From an uncultured bacterium (GTDB lineage: Bacteria; Eisenbacteria; RBG-16-71-46; CAIMUX01): 64,000 bases of DNA. Location: the NCBI GenBank assembly GCA_964631125.1, contig CAZVYN010000005.1:34230-98229 (forward strand), read 5' to 3'. A program made the position numbers and the translations under genes. The notes beneath the pieces were generated by a model. The model worked only from the letters and a program-made list of their open reading frames with translations, did no database searches and was not told the origin of the DNA. Shown here one piece after another: positions 14,589-46,123 of the stretch; position 1 is the stretch's first letter, and each line of letters opens with the position of its first letter.

Positions 14589-16815
<2,227 letters not shown>

Positions 16816-23133: not shown

Positions 23134-23165
23134 CGCGAAGGCCGCGAAGCAATCAGGAGAACGTG

Positions 23166-28548: not shown

Positions 28549-28850
28549 TAAGTCCCGCGACCGCCCCGTCCAACGTTCCGTCGGAATGAGGAAAGCCTTC
28601 GCAATCGCCCTCGATACGTGTGGACAATCCAGTAACAACATGTCACGCAATGTTTTAGAGTGTCGATGACTTGTTGATATCGACAACCCGCGGGCTTGGG
28701 TGGAACCGCACCGCCACGGCCGCCCGAATCGGCTTTCTGTTTGACACGTCAAAAGTTGCAAGCCTAAGATCCGCCGCGGATTCCGGGGAGGACGCGACGT
28801 CCGAATCAGGAGTCTCTTCGCCGCTTGGGGTTGGAAAGGGAAGTCTCGGA

Positions 28851-30680
28851 ATGCTTGTTTCGCGTCGAAGGGGTGTCGACAGAGTGGCCAAGAGTCCCGA
28901 GGGAAGGTGCAGAGTTCCAGTAGCACTGCTGTGGCATCCCTTGTCCTGGTTTGCGATGGTCCTGCCCGTGCTCCTGATCTCCCTGGGCGCTTGCTCAGAG
29001 GATGATCCACCGACTCCTCCCGACACTCAGCCTCCCGAAGTGCTCCTGGTCTATCCGACGCGCGACGTCGACGACCCATTCACGGTCAGCGACTCTGTCG
29101 ACGTTGTTGTCGTTGCGCGAGATCAATCCGGCATCTCTTCGGTTGAGATGTATTTCTCGCGCCCCGGCGATCCGGCGAGAACATTGATCGGCCAGACAGC
29201 GAACTCGGTGGAACTGAGCGACCTGCCGGACAGCGTGGCCAAGGCGATCACGGTTCCTGACGGCTTCTCGCTCTACTCGGTGCGCTGGAGAACCGCAACG
29301 ATCCGAAGCGGCTCGACTCCGCAGGTGCTCTCGGTCGCTCTCGATGCGAACGGCAATCGGGGTGTCTCGAGCGACCTCACGGTCTATGTCCTGAATCGCG
29401 GACAACGACTCGAGCCGCCGAGGGTGGATTTCATCATCTCGCCCCCGAATGGCTCATTCCATGACGAGTTTGCTTTCGACCCGACCGGGTTGACGTTCGA
29501 CGAGAGCGAGATCAATACGCCGGAACAGATCCGCCTGCGATGGGACTTCAACGGCGACGCTCGACCCTCTGACCCTGACGAGAGTCGCTGGGAAGTAAAG
29601 TGGTCCGATCGCGCGAACGCCTCCCAAGTGCAGCGCTATACGTACCAAGGCGCGGGGAGCTATATCGTCAAGGCCGAAGCCAGAAATACGTACTTGGAGA
29701 ACGAGACATCGATTCGGCAGCGCTCGCTCATCGTCAGCGCGTCGGTCACGGATCCGGCGCCGCCGAACCCGGAGGACTATCTGCTGCTGCCGGCCGGCAC
29801 GTACCGCGTCGGGAATGCAGACTCCACGATGCTCAGAAGCGGCCTGGCCGACGCCGACGAGTACCCGAATCACGCCGTGCGTCTGAACTTCAACGCGAGA
29901 GTCTCGAAGTTCGAAGTCACCACCGCTCTCTACCTCGGGTACATCAACGAGGCATCGCAAGCGGACCCGCCGCTGGTCCGTCTCGTCGCTGGACAGATCG
30001 TCTTCAATGATCTTGCAGCGCCGGTGGACTCGGCGGATCACGTCTACGTGTCGCTGGACGACACGAGAATCTTCTTCGATCCGGACGACAGCCAGTTCCG
30101 GATCCGGGCGGGATACGAGCAACACCCGATGACCGGCGTCACCTTCCGTGGCGCCCTGGCCTACTGCTCCCACTACGGACTCCGGCTCTTGACGGAATCG
30201 GAGTGGGAGGTCCTGGCTCGAGGCGATTCGTTGGCTTGGAGTTACCCCTACGGTCGGTCGCTCTTCGACGGCGATCCGACGGGCCAGAGGCGGATCAATT
30301 ACGAGGACTCGGGAGATCCCTTCGAAGACGATAGTTCGGACATTCTGTCCGGGACGACTCCGGTTGGGTTCTATGACGGACGCGTTGCCTCGGGATTCGA
30401 GACCATCGACACACCCAGCCCGCTGCTCCCGGTAGGCGCGTACGACGTCAGCGGAAATGTCGCTGAGTGGGTAGGCGACTGGTACGCACGGTATGGGCGC
30501 GACCAGCTCGAGGATCCGACCGGCCCGTTGGAGGGTGTCTTCAAGGTCATCCGGGGGGGCAGCCACGTCAACGGACCACGCGGCGTGCGCGTGACGGCCC
30601 GCGCCATCGGTTCGGTCAACGAGTCGTATCCCACGGTCGGCTTCCGCCCTGCCTACACGGATTTCGAGGGGCTTCGGTAG
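28851..30680 (+). CDS. Lipoprotein with PKD-like domain and C-terminal FGE/SUMF1 (formylglycine-generating-enzyme-like) domain
   Basis: Signal plus lipobox (LLISLGAC) and a PKD-like segment (IRLRWDFNGD). The C-terminal FGE-sulfatase fold has GYRLLTESEWE, NVAEWVGDWY and VIRGGS motifs. Start moved to ATG at M61 of the track ORF (Arg-rich n-region, GGAAGG upstream). Confidence 0.7.
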   Translation: MLVSRRRGVDRVAKSPEGRCRVPVALLWHPLSWFAMVLPVLLISLGACSEDDPPTPPDTQPPEVLLVYPTRDVDDPFTVSDSVDVVVVARDQSGISSVEMYFSRPGDPARTLIGQTANSVELSDLPDSVAKAITVPDGFSLYSVRWRTATIRSGSTPQVLSVALDANGNRGVSSDLTVYVLNRGQRLEPPRVDFIISPPNGSFHDEFAFDPTGLTFDESEINTPEQIRLRWDFNGDARPSDPDESRWEVKWSDRANASQVQRYTYQGAGSYIVKAEARNTYLENETSIRQRSLIVSASVTDPAPPNPEDYLLLPAGTYRVGNADSTMLRSGLADADEYPNHAVRLNFNARVSKFEVTTALYLGYINEASQADPPLVRLVAGQIVFNDLAAPVDSADHVYVSLDDTRIFFDPDDSQFRIRAGYEQHPMTGVTFRGALAYCSHYGLRLLTESEWEVLARGDSLAWSYPYGRSLFDGDPTGQRRINYEDSGDPFEDDSSDILSGTTPVGFYDGRVASGFETIDTPSPLLPVGAYDVSGNVAEWVGDWYARYGRDQLEDPTGPLEGVFKVIRGGSHVNGPRGVRVTARAIGSVNESYPTVGFRPAYTDFEGLR

Positions 30681-32682: not shown

Positions 32683-34971
32683 CTATTCCGCCGCTCGTCG
32701 ACCTCGCTCGGCGGCCAGAGGGAGAGGGCGAACGCTGGACCGCCGCTCGGCCACTTCGGCGCCCATGAGCGCGCGCGCCTCGCGGATGATGTCCCCCTCG
32801 GACGGCAACACCGAGTAGGCGGCGGGTCCGAGTGGAATGTAGGTGTCTTCACCGCAGACGCGTCCGACCGGTAGGCCGGGTCCGCAGCTCTCTGCGATCG
32901 CCGTGATGATCCCTTCGCCCAATCCCCCCGTGCGACGTCCCTCGTCCACGATCAAGACGCGGCCGCACTGGGTCGCCTGCTCTGCGATGAAGAGACGGTT
33001 GAGCGGGTTGAGCCAGCGGAGATCGGCGATCCGCGCGCGCACACCGTGCTGCCGCTCGAGTACGCGCGCGGCGCGCAACGAGAGATAAGCGCCGTTTCCG
33101 TAGGTGAAGATCACGAGGTCTCGGTGCTCCGGCCGGTAGACGCGACCCTCGCCGAGCGGGATCGCAACCTCGGCCGCGGGCGGATCGAACTGCCAGCCCC
33201 CGTCCTTCGGTTCATGCAGGTCCTTCGTCATGTAGAGCGCGATCGGCTCGAGGAAGGCGACGATTCTGCCGTCGACCCGCGCGAGCGCGGCGCACGTGCG
33301 TAGCATCGCGATGGCGTCGTCGCCGCGAGACGGACAGGCCAGCACCAACCCGGGGATGTCGCGGAGCGCCGTGATCGAATTGTCGTTGTGGAAGTGTCCG
33401 CCGAAACCGCGTTGATACGCGAGGCTGGCCATCCTGAGCAGCATCGGGTTCCGATACTGGTCGTTGGAGAAGTATTGGAGCGAACTCGCCTCTCCGCGGA
33501 TCTGGTCGCACGCGTTGTGGAAGTAGGCGAGGTACTGGATCTCGGGGATGGGCAGAAAGCCCATATTGGCCGCGCCCTGCGCCAACCCGAGGATCGACTG
33601 TTCATCCAACAACGTGTCGAAGACACGCTCGGGGCCGAAGCGCCCCTGCAGGCCGGTCGTGACGTTGTAGACGCCGCCCTTCTTCGCCACGTCCTCGCCG
33701 AAGACGATCGCCTCCGGATACTTCGTCATCAACTCGTGCAGACCGACGTTGAGCAGCGCCGCTAGATGTCGTCCGGGTTTCGCTTCGAGCGAAACGTGGA
33801 CTCCGCTCTTCCGCGAAGCCTCCTTCGTCACCGCCGCTGGCGTATAGGGCGCAAGTGGCCCCATCACCTGCTCCTTCGTCTCCAGCCGCGGCCGCTCCAC
33901 TGCCCGATCCGCCGCCTCCTGCACCCGCATTCGCGTCGCCTCATAACGACCGCGGATCTGATCCGCGGTCAGAAGGCCCGCATCGAGCACGAGCCGCGCT
34001 GTGTGCAGCAGCGGATCCTCTGCTTCCACCAACTCGATCTCCACCTCACTGTGGTATTCGAACTCCACATCCGATCCGGCATGCCCGAGCATGCGCACGA
34101 CCGAGAGATGGAGGAACGCCGGCCGCCGCGTCGTTCGCGCGTGGTCCACCGCGCGGGCGGCGATTTCATAGGCATCCACGAGGTCGAGTCCATCGGCTCC
34201 GAAGTAGGTGAGACCCGGGCGAGCCGAGAAACTCTCGCGGATGAACCCTGCCGGCGTGTCGGTCGAGATCCCGATGCCGTTGTCTTCGCAGACGAAGAGG
34301 ATGGGGACTTCCCATCCGCGCCGCTGCGCCCAATTCGCGAGGTTGAAGGCGCCCTGCGCCGTGCTGTGGTTGGTGCTGGCGTCGCCGAAGGAACAGATCG
34401 CGATGCTGTCGGACGGGATGGGGAGCTCTCTCTGGAGCTTTCCAGCGCGCCAGATGGCGATCGCCGTTCCCACCGACTTGGGTAGATGGCTCGCGATGGT
34501 CGAGGTCTGCGGCAAGATCCAGAGCGGTTTCGAACCCCAGACCTTGTGACGTCCGCCCGAGATCGGATCCTCGGCGCTCGCCACTTGCGACAACGTCGTG
34601 TCGTAGATCGGGTCGATCGCGGGCAGATGGCGCGCCCGCTCGATCATGAGGGCTCCACTGCGATAGTGGAGGAACGCCGGATCCGTGTGCCGCGAGACGC
34701 GGCCCACGACTACATTCCCTTCATGCCCCGACGAGCCGATGGTGTAGAACGCGCGGTCGAGTTGCCGCAGCTTGCGCGCCACCAGATCCAGGTGCCGCGA
34801 CGCCATCTGCGACTCGAAGAGCTCGAGCAGGACGCGGCCGGTGAGACGGCTGGACGGGGCGAGCCGATCGTCCGGCGTCAGAGCGCCTGGTTGCGCAGCC
34901 GGATCGTCCTCCCACGTCTCCAAGATTCGCAGGAAGTTCTGATCGACGACCTCGGACCGGTTGTAGTTCAT
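32683..34971 (-). CDS. Fused 2-oxoacid dehydrogenase E1 component (alpha and beta subunits in one polypeptide)
   Basis: N-terminal TPP-binding alpha-like half (GSSGHEGN...GDASTNHSTAQGAFNLA) and C-terminal beta/transketolase-like half (GEDVAKKGGVYNVTTGLQGRFG...). Start at ATG M86 of track ORF 32683..35226. Confidence 0.8.
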   Translation of the reverse strand: MNYNRSEVVDQNFLRILETWEDDPAAQPGALTPDDRLAPSSRLTGRVLLELFESQMASRHLDLVARKLRQLDRAFYTIGSSGHEGNVVVGRVSRHTDPAFLHYRSGALMIERARHLPAIDPIYDTTLSQVASAEDPISGGRHKVWGSKPLWILPQTSTIASHLPKSVGTAIAIWRAGKLQRELPIPSDSIAICSFGDASTNHSTAQGAFNLANWAQRRGWEVPILFVCEDNGIGISTDTPAGFIRESFSARPGLTYFGADGLDLVDAYEIAARAVDHARTTRRPAFLHLSVVRMLGHAGSDVEFEYHSEVEIELVEAEDPLLHTARLVLDAGLLTADQIRGRYEATRMRVQEAADRAVERPRLETKEQVMGPLAPYTPAAVTKEASRKSGVHVSLEAKPGRHLAALLNVGLHELMTKYPEAIVFGEDVAKKGGVYNVTTGLQGRFGPERVFDTLLDEQSILGLAQGAANMGFLPIPEIQYLAYFHNACDQIRGEASSLQYFSNDQYRNPMLLRMASLAYQRGFGGHFHNDNSITALRDIPGLVLACPSRGDDAIAMLRTCAALARVDGRIVAFLEPIALYMTKDLHEPKDGGWQFDPPAAEVAIPLGEGRVYRPEHRDLVIFTYGNGAYLSLRAARVLERQHGVRARIADLRWLNPLNRLFIAEQATQCGRVLIVDEGRRTGGLGEGIITAIAESCGPGLPVGRVCGEDTYIPLGPAAYSVLPSEGDIIREARALMGAEVAERRSSVRPLPLAAERGRRAAE

Positions 34972-35257
34972 GGGGCGGGATGTTAGCAGGCCGAAGAGCG
35001 CGATCGCTCGTCGAGTCCGCGCTAGCTCCCCTGAATCAGCAACACTCGGTACCTCCGCAGCAGCGCGGGCAACTCTGGAGCCTCTGCCAGCGGCATCCCG
35101 GAGACCAGTTCGAGTTTGAAGAGCGCCCTGTCGTAGATGGCGACGCTCGTGTCCTGACTCCGGAGGCGGGAGGACCAGGCGATCCCGTCGGGACCGTCCG
35201 GGTGGGAGTGAATGGCGGCCGACCACTCACGCGCCAGGGTCTGATTCGAACCGAACG

Positions 35258-35638
35258 CTAGTTCGTGGGGATACCCATGCGGACAACGCCTGGTCCGCGC
35301 AGGTCCACGAGCCTCAGCTCCGCTCTGGATCGGATCAGCGAATGGGTTCTGGAGCGGATCTCGCCGAGATCGACAGGCACGTCTCCGACGACTCCGTTGC
35401 GCGCGTCCCGCAGAACGACCTCGAGAAAGCCGACCTCCAGTGAAGTCCCGAGATAGAGCACCTGGTACCTCGCTGAGTCACCGGACGACAGCGGATCGCT
35501 GAATCGGGTGGGGTGCACACCCGGATCGAGCGGACCGAACTTCGTGCGGTGGATGCGGTGGAACTCCCGTCCCGCCTCGACGCGCCACCAGTCGAGCTCG
35601 ACCGAGGGGAAGGACTCCGACGAGCCACGGGATTTCAC
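35258..35638 (-). CDS. RES-domain toxin (NAD+-targeting toxin family)
   Basis: R-E-S signature elements: FHRIHRTKFGPLDP, RFSDP, YQVLYLGTSLEVGFLE. Overlaps the upstream Xre-type antitoxin gene by 4 nt. Confidence 0.6.
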   Translation of the reverse strand: MKSRGSSESFPSVELDWWRVEAGREFHRIHRTKFGPLDPGVHPTRFSDPLSSGDSARYQVLYLGTSLEVGFLEVVLRDARNGVVGDVPVDLGEIRSRTHSLIRSRAELRLVDLRGPGVVRMGIPTN

Positions 35639-36354
35639 CCCGGCACGCCGCGCGCGACCGATTCCGCGACGTTCAACACGTCGTCGGTGCGTCCGGCATG
35701 CAGCGCCTGCCGCGCGGTGAGCTCGCCGAGCTCGGGATGGTGCTGCACCAGGAAGCGATAAACGGCCCAGGGATGGTCACCGAGGACCTCGAACAAGAGA
35801 GGGATGACGTCGAAGGGTGCGCCGTTCGGGTCGAGCTGCCAGCGGGGATACTTGTAGCCTCGGAGCGGACCCTTCAACCCGAGCAAGCGATGCGTCCGGC
35901 GCCAATTGTTGATCGTCGCCCGATTCGTCCCGACGAGGTCGGCCAATGCGTCGGCGGTCAGCATTTCCGCGTCGGCGAGGATCCGCCTTGCCGACGAGGC
36001 GCCTCGCTCCAGCGCCTCCGCGAACGCGGGTGTTCGCTCAGCAGACGCGGAAGTCGAGGACGGCACCGGGGTAGCGAGCGACTCTGCCGAGATCGTGGGA
36101 GTCCCCGACGGAGAGACCGTCACGACATAGCGAACCGAGCGTTTCGCCTTCACGCTCGCGTCGACAGCCTTTGCATACGCAACGAGCACGCGTTTCGCGC
36201 CGGCCGGCTTCCTCCGCACGGTCTCCCCGTACTCGGCGGCCAGCTCGACAGCCACGTTCATCGCTGAGCGCCTCACCACGGGCTTGTTCGTAGTCTTTTT
36301 GGCCTGCTTTGTCGTGACTCGTGAGGACACCGTCGCCTCCCCGACATCGAGCAC
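35635..36354 (-). CDS. Xre/ParS/MbcA-family antitoxin (HTH + DUF2384 toxin-binding domain), N-terminally extended
   Basis: C-terminal 110 aa (LADLVGTNRATINNWRRTHRLLG...VIPLLFEVLGDHPWAVYRFLVQHHPELGELTARQALHAGRTDDVLNVAESVAR) match the RES-partner antitoxin family. The N-terminal ~120 aa are Ala/Ser/Thr/Pro-rich and basic, so the start is uncertain. Confidence 0.6.
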   Translation of the reverse strand: MLDVGEATVSSRVTTKQAKKTTNKPVVRRSAMNVAVELAAEYGETVRRKPAGAKRVLVAYAKAVDASVKAKRSVRYVVTVSPSGTPTISAESLATPVPSSTSASAERTPAFAEALERGASSARRILADAEMLTADALADLVGTNRATINNWRRTHRLLGLKGPLRGYKYPRWQLDPNGAPFDVIPLLFEVLGDHPWAVYRFLVQHHPELGELTARQALHAGRTDDVLNVAESVARGVPG

Positions 36355-36820
36355 CAGAACGTAAGACCCGTGCCGCCGATGGCGCTCGTCATCGGTCGCA
36401 GGGACTCCCCACGGGTGAAGCGTACGGGGTGGTCGTAAAACTCGTCAACTTCGTAATGTTTGTGTGCCTTGGGGAGGCTGGGGGGAGGATCGAGAACGGC
36501 TCCCGTTTTCGGTCGATCGGTCAGCTCCGACAGCGAGAACTGTCCTTCACCCGCCGTAGGCCGCGCAGTTGTCGAGAGGTCGCACGATGGATTCCCGTTG
36601 TAGCGTCCCCAGGTTCGCATGTTGTCATCTCCCGCGATGCCTGCGAGGCCCGCGAAACCCGGCGGCTGGAGGGCGCATTCCCACGACGGGGTCGGCTCGC
36701 CCCGACGTCGACCGTATCAGAGGGTGACCCACGCGTGCCGTGCTCTCGCTTCACGCGGCACTCGGCACTCGGCATGTCGACAGTAGCGACAGAGACCGCC
36801 AACCCCGCGAGGTAGAAACG

Positions 36821-38002
36821 ATGCGACCACCGACCGGCCGGCACCTCAGGCGCGCCATCGCAGCGACCCTACTCCTGATGACCGCGACGTTCGTCTCCGC
36901 AACCACGCTAGTTCATGCGCAACTCGACGCGGTGCGAGACCCGCAGCCCGCCGAGCCGCTGACGGGTTCCTCCTATCCGAGCAACGATCGAGTAGTCATC
37001 GTCCTCAAGGAAGGAGTGGACCTGCTGCCGGAGGACTACTCCCGCGACGGGATGGCGCTTCGACACCTCCCCGGCTTCGAATCGCTCGCCGATCGGTTCG
37101 ACGTATCCCAGTTGCGCGCCCTGTTCCCACACAAGGATCGCGGACCCGAGTGGGAGCCGCTCAACCGTACGTTCCTCGTGAAGCTCCGTCCAGGAACAGC
37201 CGAACAGGCCGCCGCGCTCTACTCGGTCCTTCCCGCCGTCGAGTCCGCCTTCCCCGACCTCGTCGGGTCCTTGGCCTTCGTGCCCAACGGCGCCGGCTTG
37301 GACAATGGACGTGCCTGGGTGTACTCGGGAGCGAACGGCAGCGTACTGCTCAGCGTGGTCGGAGACCCGGGCCACGAAAACTTCCGGTCGGGCCGACCTG
37401 CTGGAGACTTCGATGCCGACGGCCACGTGGACTTCATCGTGGGCGCGGATCTCGCTGACAGTGTTTCGCAGTCCGCGGGGAAGTCATACGTCTTCTCGGG
37501 GGCCGACGGCTCCCGCATTGCGGTGTTCACGGGGAGTTCCCCTGGAGACCGCTTCGGTCAGGGTGTCGGCGTGGGCGACGTGAACGGAGACGGTGGACAG
37601 GATCTCGCCATCGCTGCGCTCTATGACGACAACACCGGAACTGACGCTGGAAGCGTTCGCATCGTGCTCGGCGCGGTACCGCCTTCCTCTTCGGCGCCTG
37701 GCATCGACGTAGTCGATCTGTCAACGCAGGTGTGGATCGGCGAACCCAGACCGAATCCGACAACCGGCGCCGTGAATTTTCAGATGTCGCTGCCTCGAAC
37801 GGAAGCTGTGGCGGTTGTGGTCTACGACGTTGCGGGACGCGCGGTGCGCGAGATCATCCGCTCCTCGCGGCCCGCAGGCGTGCTCGACCTTTCGTGGGAC
37901 GGCCGCGATGAACATGGCCGCCCGGTCGCCTCCGGACTCTATCTCTACTCGATCGAGGTCGGCGACGAACGCACCGTCCGACGGGGAGTCCACCTGCGCT
38001 GA
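36821..38002 (+). CDS. Secreted FG-GAP repeat protein with C-terminal FlgD-Ig-like sorting/cell-surface domain
   Basis: Signal peptide (AIAATLLLMTATFVSATTLVHA). FG-GAP-like Ca-binding loops (DFDADGHVDFIVGA, GDVNGDGGQDLAIAA). The C-terminal ~75 aa (VVVYDVAGRAVREI...LSWDGRDEHGRPVASGLYLYSIEVGDE...RGVHLR) are FlgD-Ig/T9SS-CTD-like. Start at ATG M28 of the track ORF, with GAGGT upstream. Confidence 0.7.
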   Translation: MRPPTGRHLRRAIAATLLLMTATFVSATTLVHAQLDAVRDPQPAEPLTGSSYPSNDRVVIVLKEGVDLLPEDYSRDGMALRHLPGFESLADRFDVSQLRALFPHKDRGPEWEPLNRTFLVKLRPGTAEQAAALYSVLPAVESAFPDLVGSLAFVPNGAGLDNGRAWVYSGANGSVLLSVVGDPGHENFRSGRPAGDFDADGHVDFIVGADLADSVSQSAGKSYVFSGADGSRIAVFTGSSPGDRFGQGVGVGDVNGDGGQDLAIAALYDDNTGTDAGSVRIVLGAVPPSSSAPGIDVVDLSTQVWIGEPRPNPTTGAVNFQMSLPRTEAVAVVVYDVAGRAVREIIRSSRPAGVLDLSWDGRDEHGRPVASGLYLYSIEVGDERTVRRGVHLR

Positions 38003-39428: not shown

Positions 39429-42131
39429 ATGTCCACGATCGCGCGGAGGTCCCTCGCGAGGATCCTCCCCGTCTCTGCGGGGCTACTGCTGGCCTCCGCG
39501 CTTCCGGCTCTGGCGAAGCCGACCTATCGCGTCTCGTTCTTCAATGCGTATCCCACCGTTGTCGGATCGCGGCTGGACGACGTCCCGTCGATCTCGAACC
39601 ATTGCGGCGTCTGCCACTTCGAGTTCACCGGAGGGGGACCACGCAATCCGTACGGGCAGGCGGTCGGGGCCGCTCTGCCGGGCTACCCGAACAACGACGC
39701 CGGTCGCCAGCTCGCCATTCACAGCATCGAAGGAGCCGATTCGGACGGGGACGGCTTCAGCAATCTGGTCGAGATCACCGACCTGGCCAACTACACCAAC
39801 ACTCCGACCTTTCCCGGCCTGACGGTGGGAAATGTCGGCTCGACCGCCAGCGTCGATCCGGGCGACATCGCGGGATACCTCACGCCGACGAGTAGCAGCG
39901 ACCCGGAGCCACCGGTCGTTTCGGTCGTCTCGCCGAACGGGCTCGAAGCCTGGACTGCGCAGTCGCTGGAGTCGATTCAATGGGTGGCCAGCGACAACGT
40001 CGGAGTTGCCGCCATCGACCTCTACTACCGTGACAGCGAGGCCGGTCCCTGGGTCCAGATCGCGAGGGACCTCTTCAACAGCGGCTCTTTCCCTTGGCAT
40101 GTTCACAACACTCCGACCGGCACCGCCCGAGTGCGGGTAGTCGCCCGCGACGCCGCCCAAAACGCGGCTGAAGCCCAGGGCGCGGGGACCTTCACGATCG
40201 GGAACAAGCCCGGTGGAGTAATCGGCTCCACTCTGCGGGACTTCGAGTTGGCGGGTTCGCAACCGTTCGGATCCGGCTACTTCCAAGACCGATCGACCTG
40301 CGCGGGCTGCCATGGCGGCTACGACCCTGCGGTCGAGCCGGACCATCTCTTTTCTGGCAGCATGATGGCTCACGCCGCGCGCGACCCGCTCTTTGAAGCC
40401 TGCCTGGCGATCACCGAGCAGAATGCGCCGGGATCAGGGGACTTCTGTATCCGCTGCCACTCGCCGGGAGGCTGGTTGTCCGGCCATAGCAACCCGAACG
40501 ACGGATCGGCGCTCGATGCGCTCGACCGCAAGGGGGTCTCCTGCGACGCCTGTCACCGCTTGGTGGATCCAGAGTATGACCCGGGGACGGACCCGGCCGT
40601 CGACGAGCCGATCTTGCAGGCGCTGGCGGTCGTCCCCACGGACTTCGGAAATGGAGAGTATGTGGTCGATCCGGTCGCCCGCAGACGCGGCCCCTTCTCC
40701 GATGCCGACGCCCCCCACGCCATCCTGACCTCGCCGTTCCATCGTTCGAGCGCCCTTTGCGGGACCTGCCATGAGGTCTCGAATCCGATGTTCGTTCGGA
40801 CGGGTGATCGCGACTACGCGCTCCAGGCGCTCGATCAGCCGGTGGTCGACGATTCCCCCGAGGTGCTGCTCCCGCTCGAACGCACCTACAGCGAGTGGAA
40901 GGCGAGCAGCTTCAACTCGACTCCCGGGGTCTACGCGCCGGAGTTCGCGGGCAACAAGCCGGACGGTTTCGTCTCGACCTGTCAGGACTGCCATATGCGC
41001 GACGCTTCGGGCGCGGGATGCAACGACATCGACGCCATTACCCGTGAGGACCTGCCGCTCCACGATCTCACCGGAGGAAACACCTGGGTGCCGGGGCTGA
41101 TCGCACAGCTCTATCCGGGCGAAGTGGACGCTGACGCCTTGGCCGCTGGCGCCGAACGCGCGCGCCAGATGCTACAGAAGTCAGCGCTCCTCGATGTCGT
41201 GACCGCGGCGCAAGGCGACAGTTTCGTCGCCACGGTCACCGTGACGAATCGAACCGGCCACAAGCTGCCGACCGGGTATCCAGAGGGACGCCGGATGTGG
41301 CTCCATGTCGTGGCGCGGGGCCTGAACAACGGGGTCGTCTACGAATCGGGGGCCTACGAGAGCGCGACGGGCGTGCTGCTGCTCGACGACGACTGCGTCA
41401 TCTACGAGGCGAAAATGGGAGTTTCCGAAGGGGTGTCGCAACTCACAGGTCTGTCCGTTGGCGAGACGTTTCACTTCGCGCTGAACGACACCCTGCTCAA
41501 GGACAACCGGATTCCGCCGCTTGGGTTCAGCAACGCGACGTTCGCGGCGTTCGGGGGGCAACCGATCGAGTCCGGGGGGCCCGTCCCGCGCTACTCCGAC
41601 GGCCAGAACTGGGATGCGTCGACCTTCCGCCTCCCCTCGAGCGCTCGAGAAGTGGTCGCCACGCTGTACTACCAGACGACGACAAAGGAGTACGTGGAGT
41701 TCCTACGTGACGAGAACACCACCAACTCGGCGGGTCAGACGCTGTTCGATCTGTGGGAAGCGAACGGGCGAGCGGCGCCCGTGCCGATGGCGGCCGACTC
41801 CACCTACACGACGACGGTGGAGGTGGCCGAGGATCCTCTCTCGGAGACGATTCGGATGGTTGCGATGCTCCAGGCGGGGCCCAACCCATTCCGTGACGCG
41901 GTGCGGATCGTCCTCTCGCTGCCCCGCCCGGCCCCCGCGAAGCTCGAACTCTTCGATCTCCAGGGACGCCGCTTGCTGTCGCGCGACCTTGGTGTGGTTG
42001 CGCCTGGGGGACGGGTCATCGAGTGGGACGGCCGGGATGACGCTGGGCGTGACGCGGGCGCTGGCGTCTTCTTCGCCCGAGTCGTCGCGGACGGCGATGA
42101 ACTCACGAGGCGGATCGTGCGCCTGAGGTAG
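39429..42131 (+). CDS. Secreted multiheme c-type cytochrome (six CxxCH) with C-terminal FlgD-Ig-like domain
   Basis: Signal peptide. Six heme-binding motifs: CGVCH, CAGCH, CIRCH, CDACH, CGTCH, CQDCH. The C-terminal ~80 aa (VRIVLSLPRPAPAKLELFDLQGRRLLSRDL...WDGRDDAGRDAGAGVFFARVVADGDELTRRIVRLR) are FlgD-Ig/T9SS-CTD-like. Confidence 0.8.
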   Translation: MSTIARRSLARILPVSAGLLLASALPALAKPTYRVSFFNAYPTVVGSRLDDVPSISNHCGVCHFEFTGGGPRNPYGQAVGAALPGYPNNDAGRQLAIHSIEGADSDGDGFSNLVEITDLANYTNTPTFPGLTVGNVGSTASVDPGDIAGYLTPTSSSDPEPPVVSVVSPNGLEAWTAQSLESIQWVASDNVGVAAIDLYYRDSEAGPWVQIARDLFNSGSFPWHVHNTPTGTARVRVVARDAAQNAAEAQGAGTFTIGNKPGGVIGSTLRDFELAGSQPFGSGYFQDRSTCAGCHGGYDPAVEPDHLFSGSMMAHAARDPLFEACLAITEQNAPGSGDFCIRCHSPGGWLSGHSNPNDGSALDALDRKGVSCDACHRLVDPEYDPGTDPAVDEPILQALAVVPTDFGNGEYVVDPVARRRGPFSDADAPHAILTSPFHRSSALCGTCHEVSNPMFVRTGDRDYALQALDQPVVDDSPEVLLPLERTYSEWKASSFNSTPGVYAPEFAGNKPDGFVSTCQDCHMRDASGAGCNDIDAITREDLPLHDLTGGNTWVPGLIAQLYPGEVDADALAAGAERARQMLQKSALLDVVTAAQGDSFVATVTVTNRTGHKLPTGYPEGRRMWLHVVARGLNNGVVYESGAYESATGVLLLDDDCVIYEAKMGVSEGVSQLTGLSVGETFHFALNDTLLKDNRIPPLGFSNATFAAFGGQPIESGGPVPRYSDGQNWDASTFRLPSSAREVVATLYYQTTTKEYVEFLRDENTTNSAGQTLFDLWEANGRAAPVPMAADSTYTTTVEVAEDPLSETIRMVAMLQAGPNPFRDAVRIVLSLPRPAPAKLELFDLQGRRLLSRDLGVVAPGGRVIEWDGRDDAGRDAGAGVFFARVVADGDELTRRIVRLR

Positions 42132-42514
42132 TCATCGAACGCGCGCGACGCCCGCGTTGACACATCCGGGGAACACTCCTAACCTCTCCTTACTCTCTGG
42201 TCCTGGCTGGATGGTATCGCAGGCAGCGGCCGCGACCTCGGTGGGCGACAGGTTTCCAGAGAGCAAGATCGCACCACACGAGACGGCCACTCCGCACGGT
42301 CAACTCCTTGCGTCCTGGACTCGCCTCGAGGAGTTCGAAACCTTCCCCCCCCACGCGGCTCTCGCACCCACGGGCGCGTGTTGCCGCTCGTCGAAACGCC
42401 CATTACCTGTTCGCTGTTCTCGCGCAAGCGAGAGCGACCTGCCTCGTCACACGACACGTCATGTGTCGTTCGGGAACCAGACCCTCGTAACCAATTTATC
42501 GAAGGGACGCGGCC

Positions 42515-42928
42515 ATGAATCCTTCGACCTCTGACCTCACCACCTGCCCCCGCGCGGGAAATTCTTCCCTCGAATCCAACGCGAGCGTTCAGCGGAGTTC
42601 GACACGAACCTGTGCGCTGCTCGCGATCATAGCGACGCTCTTTCTCGCGCTGAGCGCGGGTTCGAGTTGGGCCCGTCCCCAAGTTGCGGTTCCTACGCAG
42701 GGCCTCGGAGATGGGACGCCCTATGAAGAGCCTGAATACGCCCCGACCGACCCCACGAACGAAGGGGACCAGGGCGACGATCCGGATGGCGGCAAACACG
42801 AAGAGCCGGACGGCCCGCCAATCGACCAGGAAGACAGCATCCAGCAGCCGGGGAGCGGCCTCGGTTCGATGGTCTGGCGTCGATTCGAGGCGGAACTCTT
42901 CCGCGTGTTGTACTGGGTCAGGCACTGA
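42515..42928 (+). CDS. Small acidic, Pro-rich secreted protein (hypothetical)
   Basis: Hydrophobic signal segment (CALLAIIATLFLALSAGSSWA) followed by D/E/P-rich low complexity. It lies 15 nt upstream of the TPR/AAA regulator, so probably co-transcribed. Start uncertain. Confidence 0.4.
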   Translation: MNPSTSDLTTCPRAGNSSLESNASVQRSSTRTCALLAIIATLFLALSAGSSWARPQVAVPTQGLGDGTPYEEPEYAPTDPTNEGDQGDDPDGGKHEEPDGPPIDQEDSIQQPGSGLGSMVWRRFEAELFRVLYWVRH

Positions 42929-42943
42929 GCGGGGGTTTCAATC

Positions 42944-45352
42944 ATGTCTGCTCCGGCTCCACACCTCGGGCCGTCGCCGTTCGACCCATCGTCGGGCAGC
43001 GGCGCCAACGGTCGTCATTCGATTCTGGAACTAGCGCGCATCTATGTCTCCGCATCGGCTTGTGCGTCGGCGCTCGAAGTCCTCGAGCGTCTGCCGCTGA
43101 GCGAGTGGGATGAAGAGTCGCGTCTGCTCCGCGCCGAAGCGCTGATCGGACTCGGGCGGACGCCCGAAGCTGATGTGCTCCTCGGCCCGCCGATCCTTCC
43201 GAGTGCGTCATCCCCGACTCGGACGCGTCCGAGTCCCAATCCAGCAAAGCCGAGCGGAGGGGCTGACGCGACGCCGAGTCCCAAGGCGGGGCGAGCGTCC
43301 CGTCGACGGATGCCCTCGAAGCGAGAGCGCCTCGCGCAGTGGCGGTTCGTCCTGCAGCTCAAGGTGCTGCATCGGATGGGGCGTTACCGCGAAGTGCTTC
43401 AGCTCGGACGGGCCTACTTCGATGGGCGAGTGATCGAGCCGAGCCCGCTCGTCGCGCGGATGGTCGTGGTGATGGCCCAGTCGACCGAGCGGCTGCGCAG
43501 GCCGGCCGAAGCGCGCGAGTTGTACGGTGAAGTCCTGGAAGTCTACAAGGCGTTGCGATCGAAGGAAGGCGTCGCCGATGCGCTCCTGGGACTCGCGAAC
43601 ACGCAGCTTCTCGACTGCCAGTGGGACGAGGCGGACGCGCTCTACCAAGAAAGCCGCTTCCGTTACGAGGAGATCGGGCAGTCGGACAAGGCGCTGTCGT
43701 GTCTGTTGAATCTGGGTGTGCTCCGCGCGAAGCGCGGCGACCTCGCCGGCGGCCGCGCGCTGCTCGTGCAGGCGTCGATTCGTGCGTCGCAGATGGGTGA
43801 GTCGCGACGGATGGGCACCATCCGTCTCGGTCTGGCTCTGGTCGACATGCGGGAAGGACGCGTGAGGGATGCGATGGCCCATCTCCTCGCCGTGCTGCAG
43901 GACGCCCGCACTCGCCGCGCGCCGCGCAATCGCGCGCTCGCGTTCGAGTTCTTGGGCGAGCTGCATCTCTCGCAGGGACGCACCGGTCGCGCCCGTGTCT
44001 GCTTGGCGTCGGGACTCAAGCTGGCCCGCCAGATGTCGCCCACCGGCGACCTGGTGTTCGAGATCAGGCGTCGGCAGGCCGAGACCGCGCTGGCCGAAGG
44101 ATCACTCGACGAAGCTCGCGTCCTCGCGCTGGAGTCGGTGCGACTCGCGCGCGAGTACGGTGATGTCTACGAGGCGGCGGTGGCGGAACGCGTCCTTGCC
44201 ATTTGCGACGAGCAAGCGGGTCGAAGCTCCGAAGCTCTCCGTCGGGTGCGCGCGGCCTGCGACAACTTGGATCGCCTCGGCGAGACCTACGAGCGGGCGC
44301 GGTTCGAGCTGCTCAAGTTGCGACTCGAGCTGCTCCTCGGACAGACGACCGCCGATCGCGTGACGCAGCGCGCGGCCGAGGTCGAGCGCCCGTACGAGAT
44401 GTCGCCGAACGCGGTGGTTCGTGATGAGGCGGCGAGGCTCTGCGAGGCGGTCGAGAGAGTGGCCGCCAAACTCGCGCAGGAGCGAGGGGCGCCGTTCGAA
44501 GAGCGGGCTCGCTCGGTCTCGGGTCGACCATCGCCGGCCGCGGCGAATGTTCGGCCGCGAACGAGCGTGGATCTGCCTTCACTCCAGGATGGGGACCGCG
44601 CGCTGGCGATCTCGCTGGGACTGGTGGGAGAGTCTCGGATCTTCACCGACCTGCTGCGCGCGGCGGTCGAGGCGGCCGAGACAGACCTGCCGATCGTGAT
44701 CATTGGTGAGGCCGGGGCCGGCAAGTCGCGGCTCGCGCGGTTCCTCCATATGCGGTCACGTCGGCCGGGCAACTTCCTGAGTCTGCGAGTGGCGGACCTG
44801 AACGAACATGTGGTGCGCGCCGAACTATTCGGAGGTGCGATCGGTTCTCCATTCTCGTTGCCGCCCCGGGACCGCTCCCATGGCGTGCGTTCGGGAATGG
44901 CGGGACTGACGCTGGCCGATGGCGTGCGACCGGCCGGCCTCTTCGCCGCCGCCGCGCGAGGAACCCTCTGCTTCGAGGCGATGGGAGAGGTAGCGCCGAT
45001 CTTCCAGGTTCGGATGGTCGAGTGGCTGGAGCGAGCGGGAGAGTGGGCATCGCCGCAGGAGCGGCCTCGCTACCTATTCGCCGCGCGACAGCCGGTTCGT
45101 GAGGAATGGGCGCACATCCTCGGAGCGCGCATCCTCCGGATCCCCTCGCTTCGTTCGCGGGCGATCGATATCCCGGTGCTTGCCCAACAGTTCGCGACCG
45201 ATCTCTGCGAGCGTTACGGCCTCGACCGTATCGGGCTCCCGACCGCGATGCTGCAGGAGTGGTCGCAGCTAGAGTGGCCGGCGAATCTGACCGGGTTGCG
45301 GCAAGCCGTCGAGGCGTTCGTGCTCAAGCGAGGTGACGGACCCGAAGCGTAG
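42944..45352 (+). CDS. TPR-repeat protein fused to a degenerate sigma54-activator-type AAA+ domain (no recognisable HTH)
   Basis: The N-terminal ~500 aa carry multiple TPR-like repeats. The C-terminus has Walker A IIGEAGAGKSRLARFLH. GAFTGA is replaced by GAIGSPFS, while RGTLCFEAMGE and the arginine-finger region are retained. No C-terminal Fis-type HTH is visible. Confidence 0.7.
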   Translation: MSAPAPHLGPSPFDPSSGSGANGRHSILELARIYVSASACASALEVLERLPLSEWDEESRLLRAEALIGLGRTPEADVLLGPPILPSASSPTRTRPSPNPAKPSGGADATPSPKAGRASRRRMPSKRERLAQWRFVLQLKVLHRMGRYREVLQLGRAYFDGRVIEPSPLVARMVVVMAQSTERLRRPAEARELYGEVLEVYKALRSKEGVADALLGLANTQLLDCQWDEADALYQESRFRYEEIGQSDKALSCLLNLGVLRAKRGDLAGGRALLVQASIRASQMGESRRMGTIRLGLALVDMREGRVRDAMAHLLAVLQDARTRRAPRNRALAFEFLGELHLSQGRTGRARVCLASGLKLARQMSPTGDLVFEIRRRQAETALAEGSLDEARVLALESVRLAREYGDVYEAAVAERVLAICDEQAGRSSEALRRVRAACDNLDRLGETYERARFELLKLRLELLLGQTTADRVTQRAAEVERPYEMSPNAVVRDEAARLCEAVERVAAKLAQERGAPFEERARSVSGRPSPAAANVRPRTSVDLPSLQDGDRALAISLGLVGESRIFTDLLRAAVEAAETDLPIVIIGEAGAGKSRLARFLHMRSRRPGNFLSLRVADLNEHVVRAELFGGAIGSPFSLPPRDRSHGVRSGMAGLTLADGVRPAGLFAAAARGTLCFEAMGEVAPIFQVRMVEWLERAGEWASPQERPRYLFAARQPVREEWAHILGARILRIPSLRSRAIDIPVLAQQFATDLCERYGLDRIGLPTAMLQEWSQLEWPANLTGLRQAVEAFVLKRGDGPEA

Positions 45353-45481
45353 CGATCAGCGAATGCGAAGGAGGCGGGCAGCTTCAGCGCGTTCGCCGAT
45401 CGAGAGCCGGAAGAAATAGACGCCGGTCGGCGCGAGCCGGCCGGCGTCGTCGTGACCGTCCCACCCTGAATCTCGACTCGA

Positions 45482-46123
45482 TCAGTCGCCTTTCGGCTGC
45501 GGCACGAACCGCAGGTACGGAACGGGCGCCTTCCACCCGGCCGGGAACTTCTTCTTGGCGTCCTCGTCGTTGAGGGAGGCCGCGATGATCACGTCCTCGC
45601 CCTGCTTCCAGTTCACCGGTGTGGCCACGCTGTGCTTGGCGGTGAGCTGGAGCGAGTCGACGACTCTCAGGATCTCGCTGAAATTGCGCCCCGTACTGGC
45701 GGGGTAGGTTAGCGTGAGTTTCACTTTCTTGTCGGCGCCGATGACGAAGACGGACCGAACCGTGAACGTGTCGTTGGCGCTCGGATGAATCATGTCGTAG
45801 AGGTCCGAGACCTTCCGATCCGGGTCCGCGATGAGCGGATAGTTCACTGCGCAACCCTGGGTCGTCTCGATGTCCTTGACCCAATCCTTGTGGGAATCGA
45901 GCGGATCGACGGAGAGGCCGATCACCTTCACGTTGCGCTTGGCGAACTCGGGCTTCAGCTTCGCGACTTCGCCGAGTTCCGTCGTGCAGACGGGCGTGAA
46001 ATCCTTCGGATGCGAGAAGAGGATTCCCCAGCCGTCCCCCAGCCATTCGTGGAAGCGAATCGGTCCGTCGGTCGTGTCGGCGGTGAAATCGGGGGCTATG
46101 TCTCCGAGTCGTACGGTCGCCAT
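45482..46123 (-). CDS. Peroxiredoxin (1-Cys Prx/Prx6-like)
   Basis: Peroxidatic Cys motif FTPVCTTE. Thioredoxin fold with a long C-terminal extension typical of the Prx6 subfamily. Confidence 0.9.
   Translation of the reverse strand: MATVRLGDIAPDFTADTTDGPIRFHEWLGDGWGILFSHPKDFTPVCTTELGEVAKLKPEFAKRNVKVIGLSVDPLDSHKDWVKDIETTQGCAVNYPLIADPDRKVSDLYDMIHPSANDTFTVRSVFVIGADKKVKLTLTYPASTGRNFSEILRVVDSLQLTAKHSVATPVNWKQGEDVIIAASLNDEDAKKKFPAGWKAPVPYLRFVPQPKGD

Follow-up and report, generated by a model that had tools for sequence, protein, structure and literature searches.

Sequence evidence supports the identification of the 900-residue product of the gene at 39429..42131 (ATG at 39429, stop at 42131; + strand, as for all features below unless stated otherwise) as a secreted hexaheme c-type cytochrome. 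The gene is complete and lies in a 64-kb stretch of DNA, the whole of which was analysed and is referred to here as the window. We propose, with roughly even confidence, that the six-heme protein is an exported electron-transfer module, located most likely beyond the outer membrane and either attached to the cell surface or released. The cytochrome represents a very large, unstudied and apparently extracellular family from uncultured soil and sediment bacteria.

Results

Genomic context, heme motifs and export signal

The cytochrome gene is monocistronic: the upstream acyl-CoA dehydrogenase gene is divergent, and the downstream ORF (42179..42925, - strand) is convergent. A scan for sigma-70 promoters and terminators around the gene was uninformative. 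The GC content of the gene (0.66) equals that of the window (0.65), and a horizontally acquired island was therefore rejected. Of all window ORFs with 150 aa or more, this one alone contains CxxCH, and neither a porin-cytochrome conduit nor a second cytochrome gene was found in the 64 kb. No neighbour is conserved around the gene and its orthologues, and no partner is indicated. The role in extracellular electron transfer or mineral respiration that had been put forward in the original prediction thus finds no support in the locus, with its monocistronic gene, its lack of conserved neighbours and the absence of a conduit or other cytochrome from the window. A second cargo-type protein of the window, with FG-GAP repeats, is encoded 1.4 kb upstream (36740..38002); the interval previously given for it, 36821..38002, begins at an in-frame start codon further downstream.

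The six CxxCH motifs begin at residues 59, 291, 340, 372, 444 and 518 and span 464 aa, in agreement with the description of six such motifs spread over about 500 aa of a secreted protein. They hold 12 of the 15 cysteines, and 20,000 shuffles of the residues gave a mean of 0.005 motifs and a maximum of one. All six are invariant across 41 orthologues, and the five core motifs remain invariant across 67 diverse family members. By inspection of the translation, residues 1-29 (39429..39515) form a Sec-type signal peptide cleaved after ALA, MSTIARRSLARILPVSAGLLLASALPALA, with KP following the cleavage site; the AF2 model has a helix at residues 2-23 in this region. The signal peptide has no lipobox Cys, and the assignment of the cytochrome as a lipoprotein was rejected.

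Domain organization of the cytochrome

The N-terminal monoheme domain (residues 30-135; 39516..39833) was delimited by a sub-cut-off profile match and by invariant residues, which in the 41 orthologues are H58, C59, C62, H63, D104, D108 and E115. It contains the first CxxCH (residues 59-63; 39603..39617, from the translation) and an EF-hand-like loop, D104..E115 (39738..39773), recognized as a pattern in the translation. The segment GADSDGDGFSNLVE includes the canonical 12-residue EF-hand loop D104-x-D-x-D-G-x-x-N-x-x-E115; Pfam EF-hand profiles gave no match. The NCBIfam model NF041762 ('GEGP diheme') matches the domain at 33 bits over model positions 46-112 of 359 and is matched by 35/41 orthologues; a GEGP-motif diheme protein was rejected, given the cut-off of 300 bits and the single CxxCH in the domain. 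The domain alone, used as a query, found nothing beyond fragments and split versions of this gene (e.g. L083). In paralogues its place is taken by a PQQ dehydrogenase. An Ig-like spacer (residues 162-258; 39912..40202) follows, which is Big_7-like (Pfam Big_7, 19.7 bits, with matches in 29/41 orthologues) and is modelled by AF2 as a beta-sandwich with pLDDT 81-92.

The monoheme domain and the spacer precede the core (residues ~270-800), which comprises a pentaheme domain and a beta-sandwich. The alpha-helical pentaheme domain (residues 270-560; 40236..41108), placed by profile alignments and the Foldseek match to 5ZE8, carries the five core CxxCH motifs (40299..40313, 40446..40460, 40542..40556, 40758..40772 and 40980..40994, from the translation). 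The beta-sandwich 'stem' of this module (residues 561-800; 41109..41828), placed by HMM alignments to 5ZE8 and 9WT8, has pLDDT >90 in the AF2 models, which lack hemes and fall to a poor pLDDT of 30-50 over parts of the heme domain. In Foldseek searches, the full model matched 5ZE8, Thermochromatium tepidum cytochrome c552, at E 2e-8, and the core model matched it at E 4e-11 (TMt 0.61) as its sole match with E <= 1e-3. Profile searches retrieved the same structure at 2.7e-6 and that of MccSep (9WT8) at 9e-4. On these model-based and profile matches, the core is assigned to the pentaheme cytochrome (c552/ExtKL type) fold, in which a predicted helical five-heme domain is followed by an Ig-like beta-sandwich.

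Comparison of the predicted structure with OmcA/MtrC and c554, which had been recommended, recovered neither, 5ZE8 being the sole significant match. Pfam PF22113 (MtrC/MtrF domain II/IV) scored 20.9 bits on the cytochrome at a cut-off of 30, with weak similarity in 26/41 orthologues; an MtrC/OmcA-like identity was rejected on this score and on the lack of a lipobox, of a Foldseek match and of mtrAB-like neighbours. A cytochrome c554-like identity was likewise rejected, with no match to PF13435 (weakly matched by 2/41 orthologues) and none in Foldseek.

Twelve stem residues are the same in 67/67 family members: N607, H611, G616, E619, R621, Y643, D692, R694, P696, Y722, Q749 and W776. Several of them lie in the stem loop N607-R-T-G-H611-K-L-P-T-G-Y617-P-E619-G-R621-R622 (41247..41294), which aligns with the selenocysteine-bearing loop of MccSep, a periplasmic tetrameric multiheme selenoprotein polysulfide reductase without a tail (bioRxiv 10.1101/2025.11.18.688581). 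The catalytic Sec U325 of MccSep corresponds to Tyr617, where Y occurs in 60/67 family members, H in 5 and F in 2, never C or U. No Cys is present between H448 and C518, leaving C239, the distal ligand of MccSep heme 2, unmatched; the alignment is weak in this segment and the equivalence approximate. The ExtKL model of NCBIfam (NF040886, ExtKL/MccSep family) is matched weakly by 41/41 orthologues and by the cytochrome itself at 28.6 bits against a cut-off of 250. Membership in the MccSep family, and with it an MccSep-type polysulfide reductase, was rejected on this score, the replacement of Sec by Tyr617 and the lack of a C239 counterpart. An invariant Tyr in place of the selenocysteine, in an otherwise conserved pocket, points to different chemistry on a known scaffold; the strictly conserved pocket Y617, E619, R621 and R622 is possibly the site for an extracellular acceptor. 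M313 is also invariant and occupies the position of a distal His in c552 and MccSep, and one core heme is probably His/Met-ligated through it.

The C-terminal domain as a sorting tag

The C-terminal domain (residues 812-900; 41862..42128) was assigned as a FlgD-Ig/T9SS type-A-like sorting domain from profiles, AF2 and motif comparison. It is, as had been noticed, the same FlgD-Ig-like domain as the tail of the FG-GAP protein (residues ~338-420; 37751..38002, located by FlgD_ig, TIGR04183 and BLASTP): BLASTP aligned the last ~90 residues of the cytochrome with that C-terminus at 33% identity over 88 aa (E = 3e-9). The profile check suggested for this domain divided. The copy studied here falls just under both cut-offs, with 25.9 bits (E 9.8e-6) against 27 for Pfam FlgD_ig (PF13860) and 20.8 bits against 23 for TIGR04183, but at E <= 1e-3 the two models match 41/41 (best 4.3e-13) and 19/41 orthologue tails, respectively. 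The Por_Secre_tail model (PF18962) gave no match to the cytochrome and matched one of the 41 orthologues. The FG-GAP protein tail exceeds the cut-offs of both FlgD_ig (42.4 bits) and TIGR04183 (26.1 bits).

The AF2 model of the cytochrome tail has seven strands between residues 813 and 898 (pLDDT ~85-90). The motif F842-D-L-Q-G846-R847-R848, with G846 and R847 invariant, falls between predicted strands 835-842 and 848-857, which places it at the beta3-beta4 junction, and the final stretch RRIVRLR is basic. In RgpB, the motif F-D-M-N-G-R-R is experimentally required for T9SS export (PMC11285876). Sequence and Foldseek comparisons both place the tail nearer to the FlgD Ig domain than to the solved CTDs of P. 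gingivalis. Across 58 FCB-type loci, the type to which this lineage belongs (978 kb), 97 ORFs carry the FlgD-Ig tag, which invariably forms the very end of the protein; across 25 Planctomycetota loci (360 kb), no ORF carries it. Among the unrelated neighbouring proteins that also bear it are a subtilisin-like protease, an ELWxxDGT-repeat protein and FG-GAP proteins; several of these neighbours score above the TIGR04183 cut-off. Its extreme C-terminal position on unrelated proteins, its absence from the Planctomycetota loci and its RgpB-like motif support the view that the domain behaves as a lineage-wide sorting tag, and the proposal that such a domain marks cargo is thereby strengthened.

Neither the 64-kb window nor ~1 Mb of related loci yielded a T9SS component. 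An FGE-sulfatase ORF of the window (28671..30680) was rejected as GldK (38 bits, cut-off 350), and tblastn of its FGE-sulfatase domain against plasmids returned generic FGE enzymes only and no GldKLMN locus. The related loci contain no ORF of SprA size and no FGE-sulfatase ORF. Seven large tail-bearing neighbours were rejected as PorU because the PorU model matches their tails only. T9SS is considered possible in FCB phyla beyond Bacteroidota and is reported to be absent outside the FCB superphylum (PMC11285876). Searches of the open-access literature found no work linking Eisenbacteria with T9SS or type IX secretion, no multiheme cytochrome described as T9SS cargo and, among the matches listed, no T9SS report for Latescibacteria, Krumholzibacteria, Eiseniibacteriota or Zixibacteria. 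T9SS combined with extracellular electron transfer yielded one unrelated review only, and neither 'FlgD Ig-like' nor PF13860 occurred in the 12 best-ranked of 442 matching papers.

Distribution and module exchange in the family

Orthologues of the cytochrome occur in at least 580 species genomes, and the pentaheme core family comprises at least 7,883 clusters at 90% identity, with abundant uncultured soil, sediment and aquifer bacteria among its host phyla. The FlgD-Ig/T9SS-type tail is retained in orthologues from Eisenbacteria, Krumholzibacteria and Latescibacteria. In Planctomycetota, orthologues ~50% identical to the cytochrome carry a dockerin instead: all 25 sampled lack the tag, most show dockerin-like C-terminal motifs, and Pfam Dockerin_1, run on seven tails of the Planctomycetota type, gave 39.7, 31.9, 24.9 and 23.5 bits (cut-off 22.9). 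Homologues lacking the C-terminal domain in relatives had been named as evidence against surface display; they do exist in Planctomycetota, but the dockerin that replaces the domain there favours an extracellular location.

Further family members add Por_Secre_tail, Dockerin, PKD, fn3, cadherin-like or CBM96 modules, all typical of extracellular proteins. A PQQ-type dehydrogenase domain (GSDH) is fused in the order GSDH (PQQ), PKD, Big_7, core and FlgD_ig in P0122 and in the Eisenbacteria loci L041, L044 and L063, and in the order GSDH, DUF11 and core in P0254. Taken together, the FlgD-Ig/T9SS tails, the dockerins, the PKD, fn3, cadherin and CBM96 modules and the PQQ sugar dehydrogenase fusions point to an extracellular or surface location of the family, as judged from sequence.

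Discussion

In the proposed mechanism, the precursor would be exported by Sec and lose its signal peptide, as read from the sequence, and the invariant CxxCH motifs would receive six hemes in the periplasm, as in c-type cytochromes generally. The comparisons above suggest that the folded holoprotein may then be recognized via its seven-stranded C-terminal sandwich and passed over the outer membrane in a T9SS-like manner. Outside the cell, electrons would enter at the N-terminal side via the monoheme EF-hand domain, a role suggested by its replacement in paralogues by a built-in PQQ sugar dehydrogenase, an electron donor. They would pass through the pentaheme core of the c552/MccSep fold, with its one probable His/Met heme (M313), and be delivered to an extracellular acceptor, possibly at the pocket of Y617, E619, R621 and R622, which would be built by the same beta-sandwich loop that in MccSep bears the catalytic selenocysteine. 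Fusions and conservation are the only grounds on which we infer which way the electrons flow and that a heme is open or reactive.

A multiheme protein with a probable surface location, weakly similar below threshold to MtrC/MtrF domain II/IV together with 26/41 orthologues, could also be the surface-displayed terminal reductase of respiratory extracellular electron transfer, linked to quinones via a conduit encoded elsewhere and acting on Fe(III)/Mn(IV) minerals or humics. We regard this as unlikely, since the window holds no conduit, porin-cytochrome or other cytochrome gene, the neighbours are not conserved and there is no similarity to the MtrC/OmcA fold. The invariant Met would suggest a higher-potential His/Met heme, as opposed to the bis-His wires of mineral reductases. 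Such high sequence conservation (~50% identity between phyla, 12 stem residues in 67/67) argues for an enzyme or a specific partner interface rather than a generic wire, and the PQQ dehydrogenase fusions would supply an extracellular donor that needs no link to the cell.

A rather improbable but more far-reaching proposal is that the core marks out a very large and as yet unnamed group of cytochromes that act outside the cell, displayed by T9SS tails in Eisenbacteria, Zixibacteria and Latescibacteria or by dockerins in Planctomycetota, and that they are a bacterial counterpart to the cytochromes of fungal cellobiose and pyranose dehydrogenases. If so, electrons would be taken outside the cell from PQQ sugar dehydrogenases, fused or separate, and passed to extracellular oxidants or to oxidative enzymes on polysaccharide surfaces, forming an extracellular redox chain independent of the respiratory membrane.

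That the closest solved or characterized relatives, c552 and MccSep, are soluble and periplasmic counts against a surface location. They favour a soluble periplasmic redox enzyme, e.g., a sulfur- or nitrogen-anion reductase, in which the C-terminal Ig domain would be structural or binding and have no part in export. The strongly conserved polar pocket in the loop equivalent to the active-site loop of MccSep, the sub-threshold tail of this copy and the failure to find T9SS components in the window and ~1 Mb of related loci fit the same picture. We consider it distinctly improbable, because the tag is common to many unrelated proteins of the lineage and absent from the Planctomycetota loci, where a dockerin takes its place, because CBM96, PKD, fn3 and cadherin modules and a bona fide Por_Secre_tail occur in family members, and because neither the Sec/Cys nor the heme-ligating Cys of MccSep is kept. 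Finally, a subunit of an extracellular cytochrome filament (nanowire) is extremely improbable: the cytochrome is probably extracellular and has the fold of c552, which with small pentaheme cytochromes shares its heme arrangement and secondary-structure elements with the archaeal filament AvECN (PMC11976967), but Foldseek matched no cytochrome filament structure, the protein is large and multidomain (Ig spacer, stem, sorting tag) where filament subunits are compact, and there is no sign of polymerization.

Should the tail drive export, as in the exported-module reading that we prefer, the cytochrome would be the first multiheme cytochrome cargo of type IX-like secretion, with a path to the surface unlike the T2SS/lipoprotein one used in Shewanella and Geobacter. 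The family probably goes unnoticed in surveys of extracellular electron transfer, because its members appear in databases under no other label than 'T9SS sorting domain' or 'PKD domain' proteins. The presence of a dockerin in place of the T9SS tail, like the fusions that add a PQQ dehydrogenase or a carbohydrate-binding module, offers testable hypotheses about extracellular redox processes in polymer-degrading bacteria.

Comparison with known systems

With T9SS type-A cargo such as RgpB of P. gingivalis, the cytochrome shares a C-terminal Ig-like sandwich of ~80-90 aa and seven strands, whose beta3-beta4 junction bears F-D-x-x-G-R-R and whose last strand has a basic residue; several orthologues go by the name 'T9SS type A sorting domain-containing protein' at NCBI. 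It differs from known cargo of this type in being a multiheme cytochrome from a phylum without a documented T9SS, and in a family tail that scores better as FlgD_ig (41/41) than as Por_Secre_tail (1/41) in Pfam. The decaheme MtrC and OmcA of Shewanella are possible functional analogues as multiheme proteins displayed beyond the outer membrane; homology to them is limited to sub-threshold matches in CxxCH-rich segments, and the folds do not match. T2SS exports MtrC and OmcA, which are lipoproteins with genes next to those for a porin and a periplasmic partner, whereas the cytochrome has neither a lipobox nor mtrAB-like neighbours.

In T. tepidum c552, as in the cytochrome, a helical domain with five CxxCH hemes precedes an Ig-like beta-sandwich, and both sandwiches contain the motif N-x-x-x-H-x-x-P-T-G. 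The identity is only 16%, and c552 is a soluble periplasmic protein of 385-435 residues that lacks the N-terminal monoheme domain, Ig spacer and sorting tail, all three present here, and has His at the position of invariant M313 and Ala at that of Y617. The function of c552 is itself not known (PMC11976967). The pentaheme cap and Ig-like stem are also shared with MccSep/ExtKL of Geobacter sulfurreducens (PDB 9WT8), whose loop TNHAGHSIPDGUPTPNRL is aligned with TNRTGHKLPTGYPEGRRM of the cytochrome in the profile alignment.

A further parallel is offered by the quinohemoprotein dehydrogenases, which include the fungal AA8-AA12-CBM1 pyranose dehydrogenase, cellobiose dehydrogenase and the bacterial PQQ-ADH with a cytochrome c domain. 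Unlike these enzymes, with their single heme b or c, the family has a pentaheme c-type module, and the window protein has no dehydrogenase domain. The resemblance lies in the paralogues that fuse a PQQ-type GSDH, or in other cases CBM96, to the pentaheme core, and such paralogues present an architecture of extracellular dehydrogenase, cytochrome and carbohydrate-binding module.

Gene, heme motifs and genomic context

The gene of the cytochrome extends from the ATG at 39429 to the stop codon at 42131 on the forward strand and encodes a protein of 900 aa, exactly where it was originally placed. The protein contains six CxxCH motifs (residues 59, 291, 340, 372, 444, and 518), which hold 12 of its 15 cysteines; the mean number of such motifs in 20,000 shuffles of its own residues was 0.005, and no other window ORF of at least 150 aa has one. 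At the N-terminus, a Sec signal peptide can be read that ends in ALA (followed by KP) and lacks a lipobox, and the GC content of the gene is 0.66 (0.65 for the window). Together with the C-terminal alignment described below, the ORF and motif count confirmed the original observation of a hexaheme protein with a FlgD-Ig-type C-terminus.

The gene is monocistronic: an acyl-CoA dehydrogenase gene on one side is transcribed divergently, and an unannotated ORF on the other side converges on it. The window represents a chromosomal origin region containing gyrA (11945..14509), gyrB (14589..16493), and dnaA (18432..20351) on the reverse strand; yidC (21439..23133), jag (within 22476..24506), and parA and parB (25469..27245) on the forward strand; and ileS and pentose-phosphate genes. 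Neither T9SS genes, cytochrome maturation genes nor other cytochromes were found in these 64 kb, and no conserved neighbours accompany the orthologues and core-family members, whose surroundings vary by genome. Just downstream, 42944..45352 (+) encodes an 802-aa protein in which a sigma-54-interaction AAA+ domain (only positions 1-118 of the 168 in the Pfam model) comes after N-terminal TPR repeats and a receiver domain is lacking; this pairing is not kept in other genomes. Around the cytochrome gene, three candidate ORFs (220-248 aa), 42179..42925, 35635..36354, and 45384..46046 (all reverse), have no Pfam or NCBIfam match. The window also contains a single 847-aa ORF (32683..35226, reverse; E1_dh, Transket_pyr, and Transketolase_C domains) for the fused alpha and beta subunits of a 2-oxoacid dehydrogenase E1 component, and two Ser/Thr protein kinases, 51714..54911 (+) and 60041..62083 (+). 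The former, of the STAND type, has 1065 aa with kinase, NB-ARC, and TPR domains; comparable kinase-TPR giants also lie beside related genes in two sampled loci (L084 and L085).

Domain organization and fold of the heme core

After the signal peptide comes a monoheme domain of ~105 residues with the H58-C-G-V-C-H63 motif and a canonical EF-hand-type loop (D104-S-D-G-D-G-F-S-N-L-V-E115). For this domain the sole profile match is a weak one to the NCBIfam 'GEGP diheme' model (33 bits vs 300). Next in the chain are a confidently predicted Big_7-like Ig domain (residues 162-258), a helical region with the five remaining CxxCH motifs (~270-560), a beta-sandwich (~561-800, pLDDT above 90), and a seven-stranded C-terminal sandwich (812-900, hereafter the tail). 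The helical region and the beta-sandwich stem constitute the core, whose heme part has no above-threshold match to a curated Pfam or NCBIfam family.

Using AF2 models, which contain no hemes and are of poor quality in parts of the heme domain, Foldseek revealed one significant PDB cytochrome, the pentaheme c552 of Thermochromatium tepidum (5ZE8; E 2e-8 and TMt 0.56 for the full model, E 4e-11 and TMt 0.61 for the core-only model). In the comparison with OmcA/MtrC and c554 folds that had been suggested, neither model matched MtrC/OmcA or c554, nor did NrfA or filament cytochromes give a hit. Among PDB sequences, profile searches recovered 5ZE8 at 2.7e-6 and 9WT8 at 9e-4.

The tail as a probable sorting domain

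Over its last ~90 residues, the cytochrome aligns with the C-terminal end of the FG-GAP protein encoded at 36740..38002 (33% identity, E 3e-9); that protein exceeds the cut-offs of both FlgD_ig and TIGR04183. The tail of the cytochrome is itself marginally sub-threshold, since it scores 25.9 bits against a FlgD_ig cut-off of 27 and 20.8 against 23 for TIGR04183. An HMM of the tail identified 97 ORFs carrying this domain at the C-terminus in 58 Eisenbacteria-type loci (978 kb) and none in 25 Planctomycetota loci (360 kb). Among the other bearers are a subtilisin-like protease, FG-GAP proteins, and an ELWxxDGT-repeat protein; several bearers pass TIGR04183.

The segment F842-D-L-Q-G-R-R848, with invariant G846 and R847, is located between the third and fourth predicted strands of the tail, whose final residues are RRIVRLR. 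In RgpB, the F-D-M-N-G-R-R segment at the strand 3/4 junction, including its glycine, and a basic residue in the last strand are needed for T9SS export (PMC11285876); the two proteins thus share F-D-x-x-G-R-R at the same junction and a basic last strand. The reading of the tail as a secretion tag is reasonably supported by comparative evidence; this copy falls marginally below the profile cut-offs. No recognisable T9SS machinery was found in the window or the sampled related loci. T9SS is considered possible in several non-Bacteroidota FCB phyla and reported absent outside the FCB superphylum, in an account that does not mention Eisenbacteria (PMC11285876). Eisenbacteria are listed among candidate phyla in the NCBI taxonomy and were rooted with Latescibacteria in one paper.

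The window ORF 28671..30680 (+) was considered as GldK/PorK and rejected, its similarity being weak (38 bits vs 350); it encodes up to 669 aa, of which ~360 at the N-terminus are unassigned, and has an FGE-sulfatase domain at the C-terminus. A T9SS-type tail also occurs on a second kind of c-type heme protein, a CCP_MauG-family di-heme peroxidase with a Por_Secre_tail domain encoded on the Zixibacteria chromosome CP070674.1 (locus L088, 16981..18525); its gene sits in a run of tail-bearing genes including C25 and S8 peptidases.

Distribution and domain architectures

The best 120 database matches are all ~900-aa orthologues (52-62% identity, one 89%), and most of them come from Candidatus Eisenbacteria MAGs. 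When one genome per species was scanned, at least 580 genomes contained a relative, and 80 loci were kept for comparison. Among these, the orthologues from Eisenbacteria-, Krumholzibacteriia-, and Latescibacterota-labelled MAGs, and from some with the label Fibrobacteraceae or Gemmatimonadetes, all align as far as residue ~898 and have the tail at their end. For the 25 Planctomycetota orthologues (48-53% identical, six CxxCH), the match stops at residue ~790-804, and most end in a dockerin-like sequence instead; in seven Planctomycetota-type termini Dockerin_1 scored 39.7, 31.9, 24.9, and 23.5 bits (Pfam cut-off 22.9), with the other three weaker. The labels Hyphomicrobiales, Thermoleophilia, Bifidobacteriaceae, and Omnitrophota in the species scan probably reflect binning or labelling errors. 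In locus L083, on a 2-Mb Eisenbacteria contig (8001..10657), the cytochrome gene is called as two genes with a 4-bp overlap (a 157-aa N-domain and a 728-aa remainder), which is either a frameshift in the long-read assembly or a real split.

An exhaustive profile search retrieved 3,238 representatives at E <= 1e-30, a count inflated by giant Ig-repeat proteins, and with a core-only member as query the yield at E <= 1e-10 was at least 7,883 clusters. Most of these come from MAGs of Zixibacteria, Latescibacteria, and Eisenbacteria, and the only names they bear are 'T9SS type A sorting domain-containing protein' and 'PKD domain-containing protein'. The core is combined with Dockerin, directly or through Big_9/He_PIG/cadherin domains; with PKD or fn3 and Por_Secre_tail; and with an N-domain and Big_7 before it and He_PIG, CBM96, and fn3 after it. 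It is also fused to GSDH (PQQ glucose/sorbosone dehydrogenase), as GSDH-PKD-Big_7-core-FlgD_ig or GSDH-DUF11-core. In three Eisenbacteria paralogues of ~1500 aa (L041 7694..12208, L044 7610..12208, and L063 726..5249), GSDH and PKD replace the N-terminal monoheme domain, leaving five CxxCH motifs, and the protein then continues as in the cytochrome, with Ig spacer, pentaheme core, and tail. Proteins P0122 (GSDH-PKD-Big_7-core-FlgD_ig) and P0254 (GSDH-DUF11-core) are grouped with these ~1500-aa Eisenbacteria paralogues. Judged by their domain composition, these fusions are putative extracellular quinohemoproteins. Another core-family member, P0261 (1152 aa), has 14 CxxCH motifs, its pentaheme module being extended by a further multiheme region.

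Conserved residues and comparison with MccSep and c552

An alignment of 67 diverse members covered Eisenbacteria-type, Planctomycetota-type, and core-only proteins. In it, each of the five core CxxCH motifs is kept in 66-67 sequences. M313, T486, E489, H545, N607, H611, G616, E619, R621, Y643, D692, R694, P696, Y722, Q749, and W776 are each invariant; H430, H438, and H682 are kept in 91-96%, and residue 617 is Tyr in 60 members, His in five, and Phe in two. Much of this invariance falls in the beta-sandwich, near the loop from which the active site of MccSep is formed, and exceeds the needs of heme ligation alone, which suggests a specific pocket or interface.

The structure 9WT8 represents MccSep/ExtKL of Geobacter sulfurreducens. 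This polysulfide reductase is a periplasmic tetramer built of a five-heme cap and an Ig-like stem, with His/Cys ligation of heme 2 via C239 and a catalytic selenocysteine, U325, in the D-G-U-P loop of the stem (10.1101/2025.11.18.688581, 2025 preprint). ExtKL, GSU2801, and c552 were united as a 'pentaheme cytochrome family' in a study of cable bacteria (PMC11976967). Because the HMM alignment pairs TNHAGHSIPDGUPTPNRL of MccSep with TNRTGHKLPTGYPEGRRM, the selenocysteine position corresponds to Tyr617, where c552 has Ala. C239 has no counterpart Cys in the stretch between heme motifs 4 and 5, and the distal His of the 'W/F-x-G-S-M-H-A' motif of c552 and MccSep is Met313. The cytochrome was thus rejected as an MccSep family member: the scaffold is common, but the defining features of MccSep are absent.

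Proposed function

We propose an extracellular redox module, a picture to which we give an even chance. The precursor would be exported by Sec and receive its hemes in the periplasm, and the folded cytochrome would leave through a T9SS-like route by means of its tail, to be anchored or released. Electrons may enter on the N-terminal side, because paralogues have an electron-donating PQQ dehydrogenase in place of the N-terminal domain. They would traverse the pentaheme core, in which one heme is probably His/Met ligated, and exit to an extracellular acceptor, perhaps at the Y617/E619/R621/R622 pocket.

Respiratory mineral reduction, the specific role first suggested for the surface-displayed cytochrome, is unsupported and appears unlikely: no conduit or respiratory link was seen in the window, and neither the conservation pattern nor the Met ligand is typical of mineral-reducing wires. 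That the protein is a purely periplasmic enzyme is decidedly improbable; every accessory module in the core family is of a kind typical for extracellular proteins. The pentaheme fold has been tied to the archaeal filament AvECN (PMC11976967); a filament subunit is hardly credible here.

The family to which the cytochrome belongs is very large, with neither a curated name nor a studied member. The cytochrome itself combines two known kinds of protein, a pentaheme scaffold of the c552/MccSep type and a cargo tail of the T9SS type.
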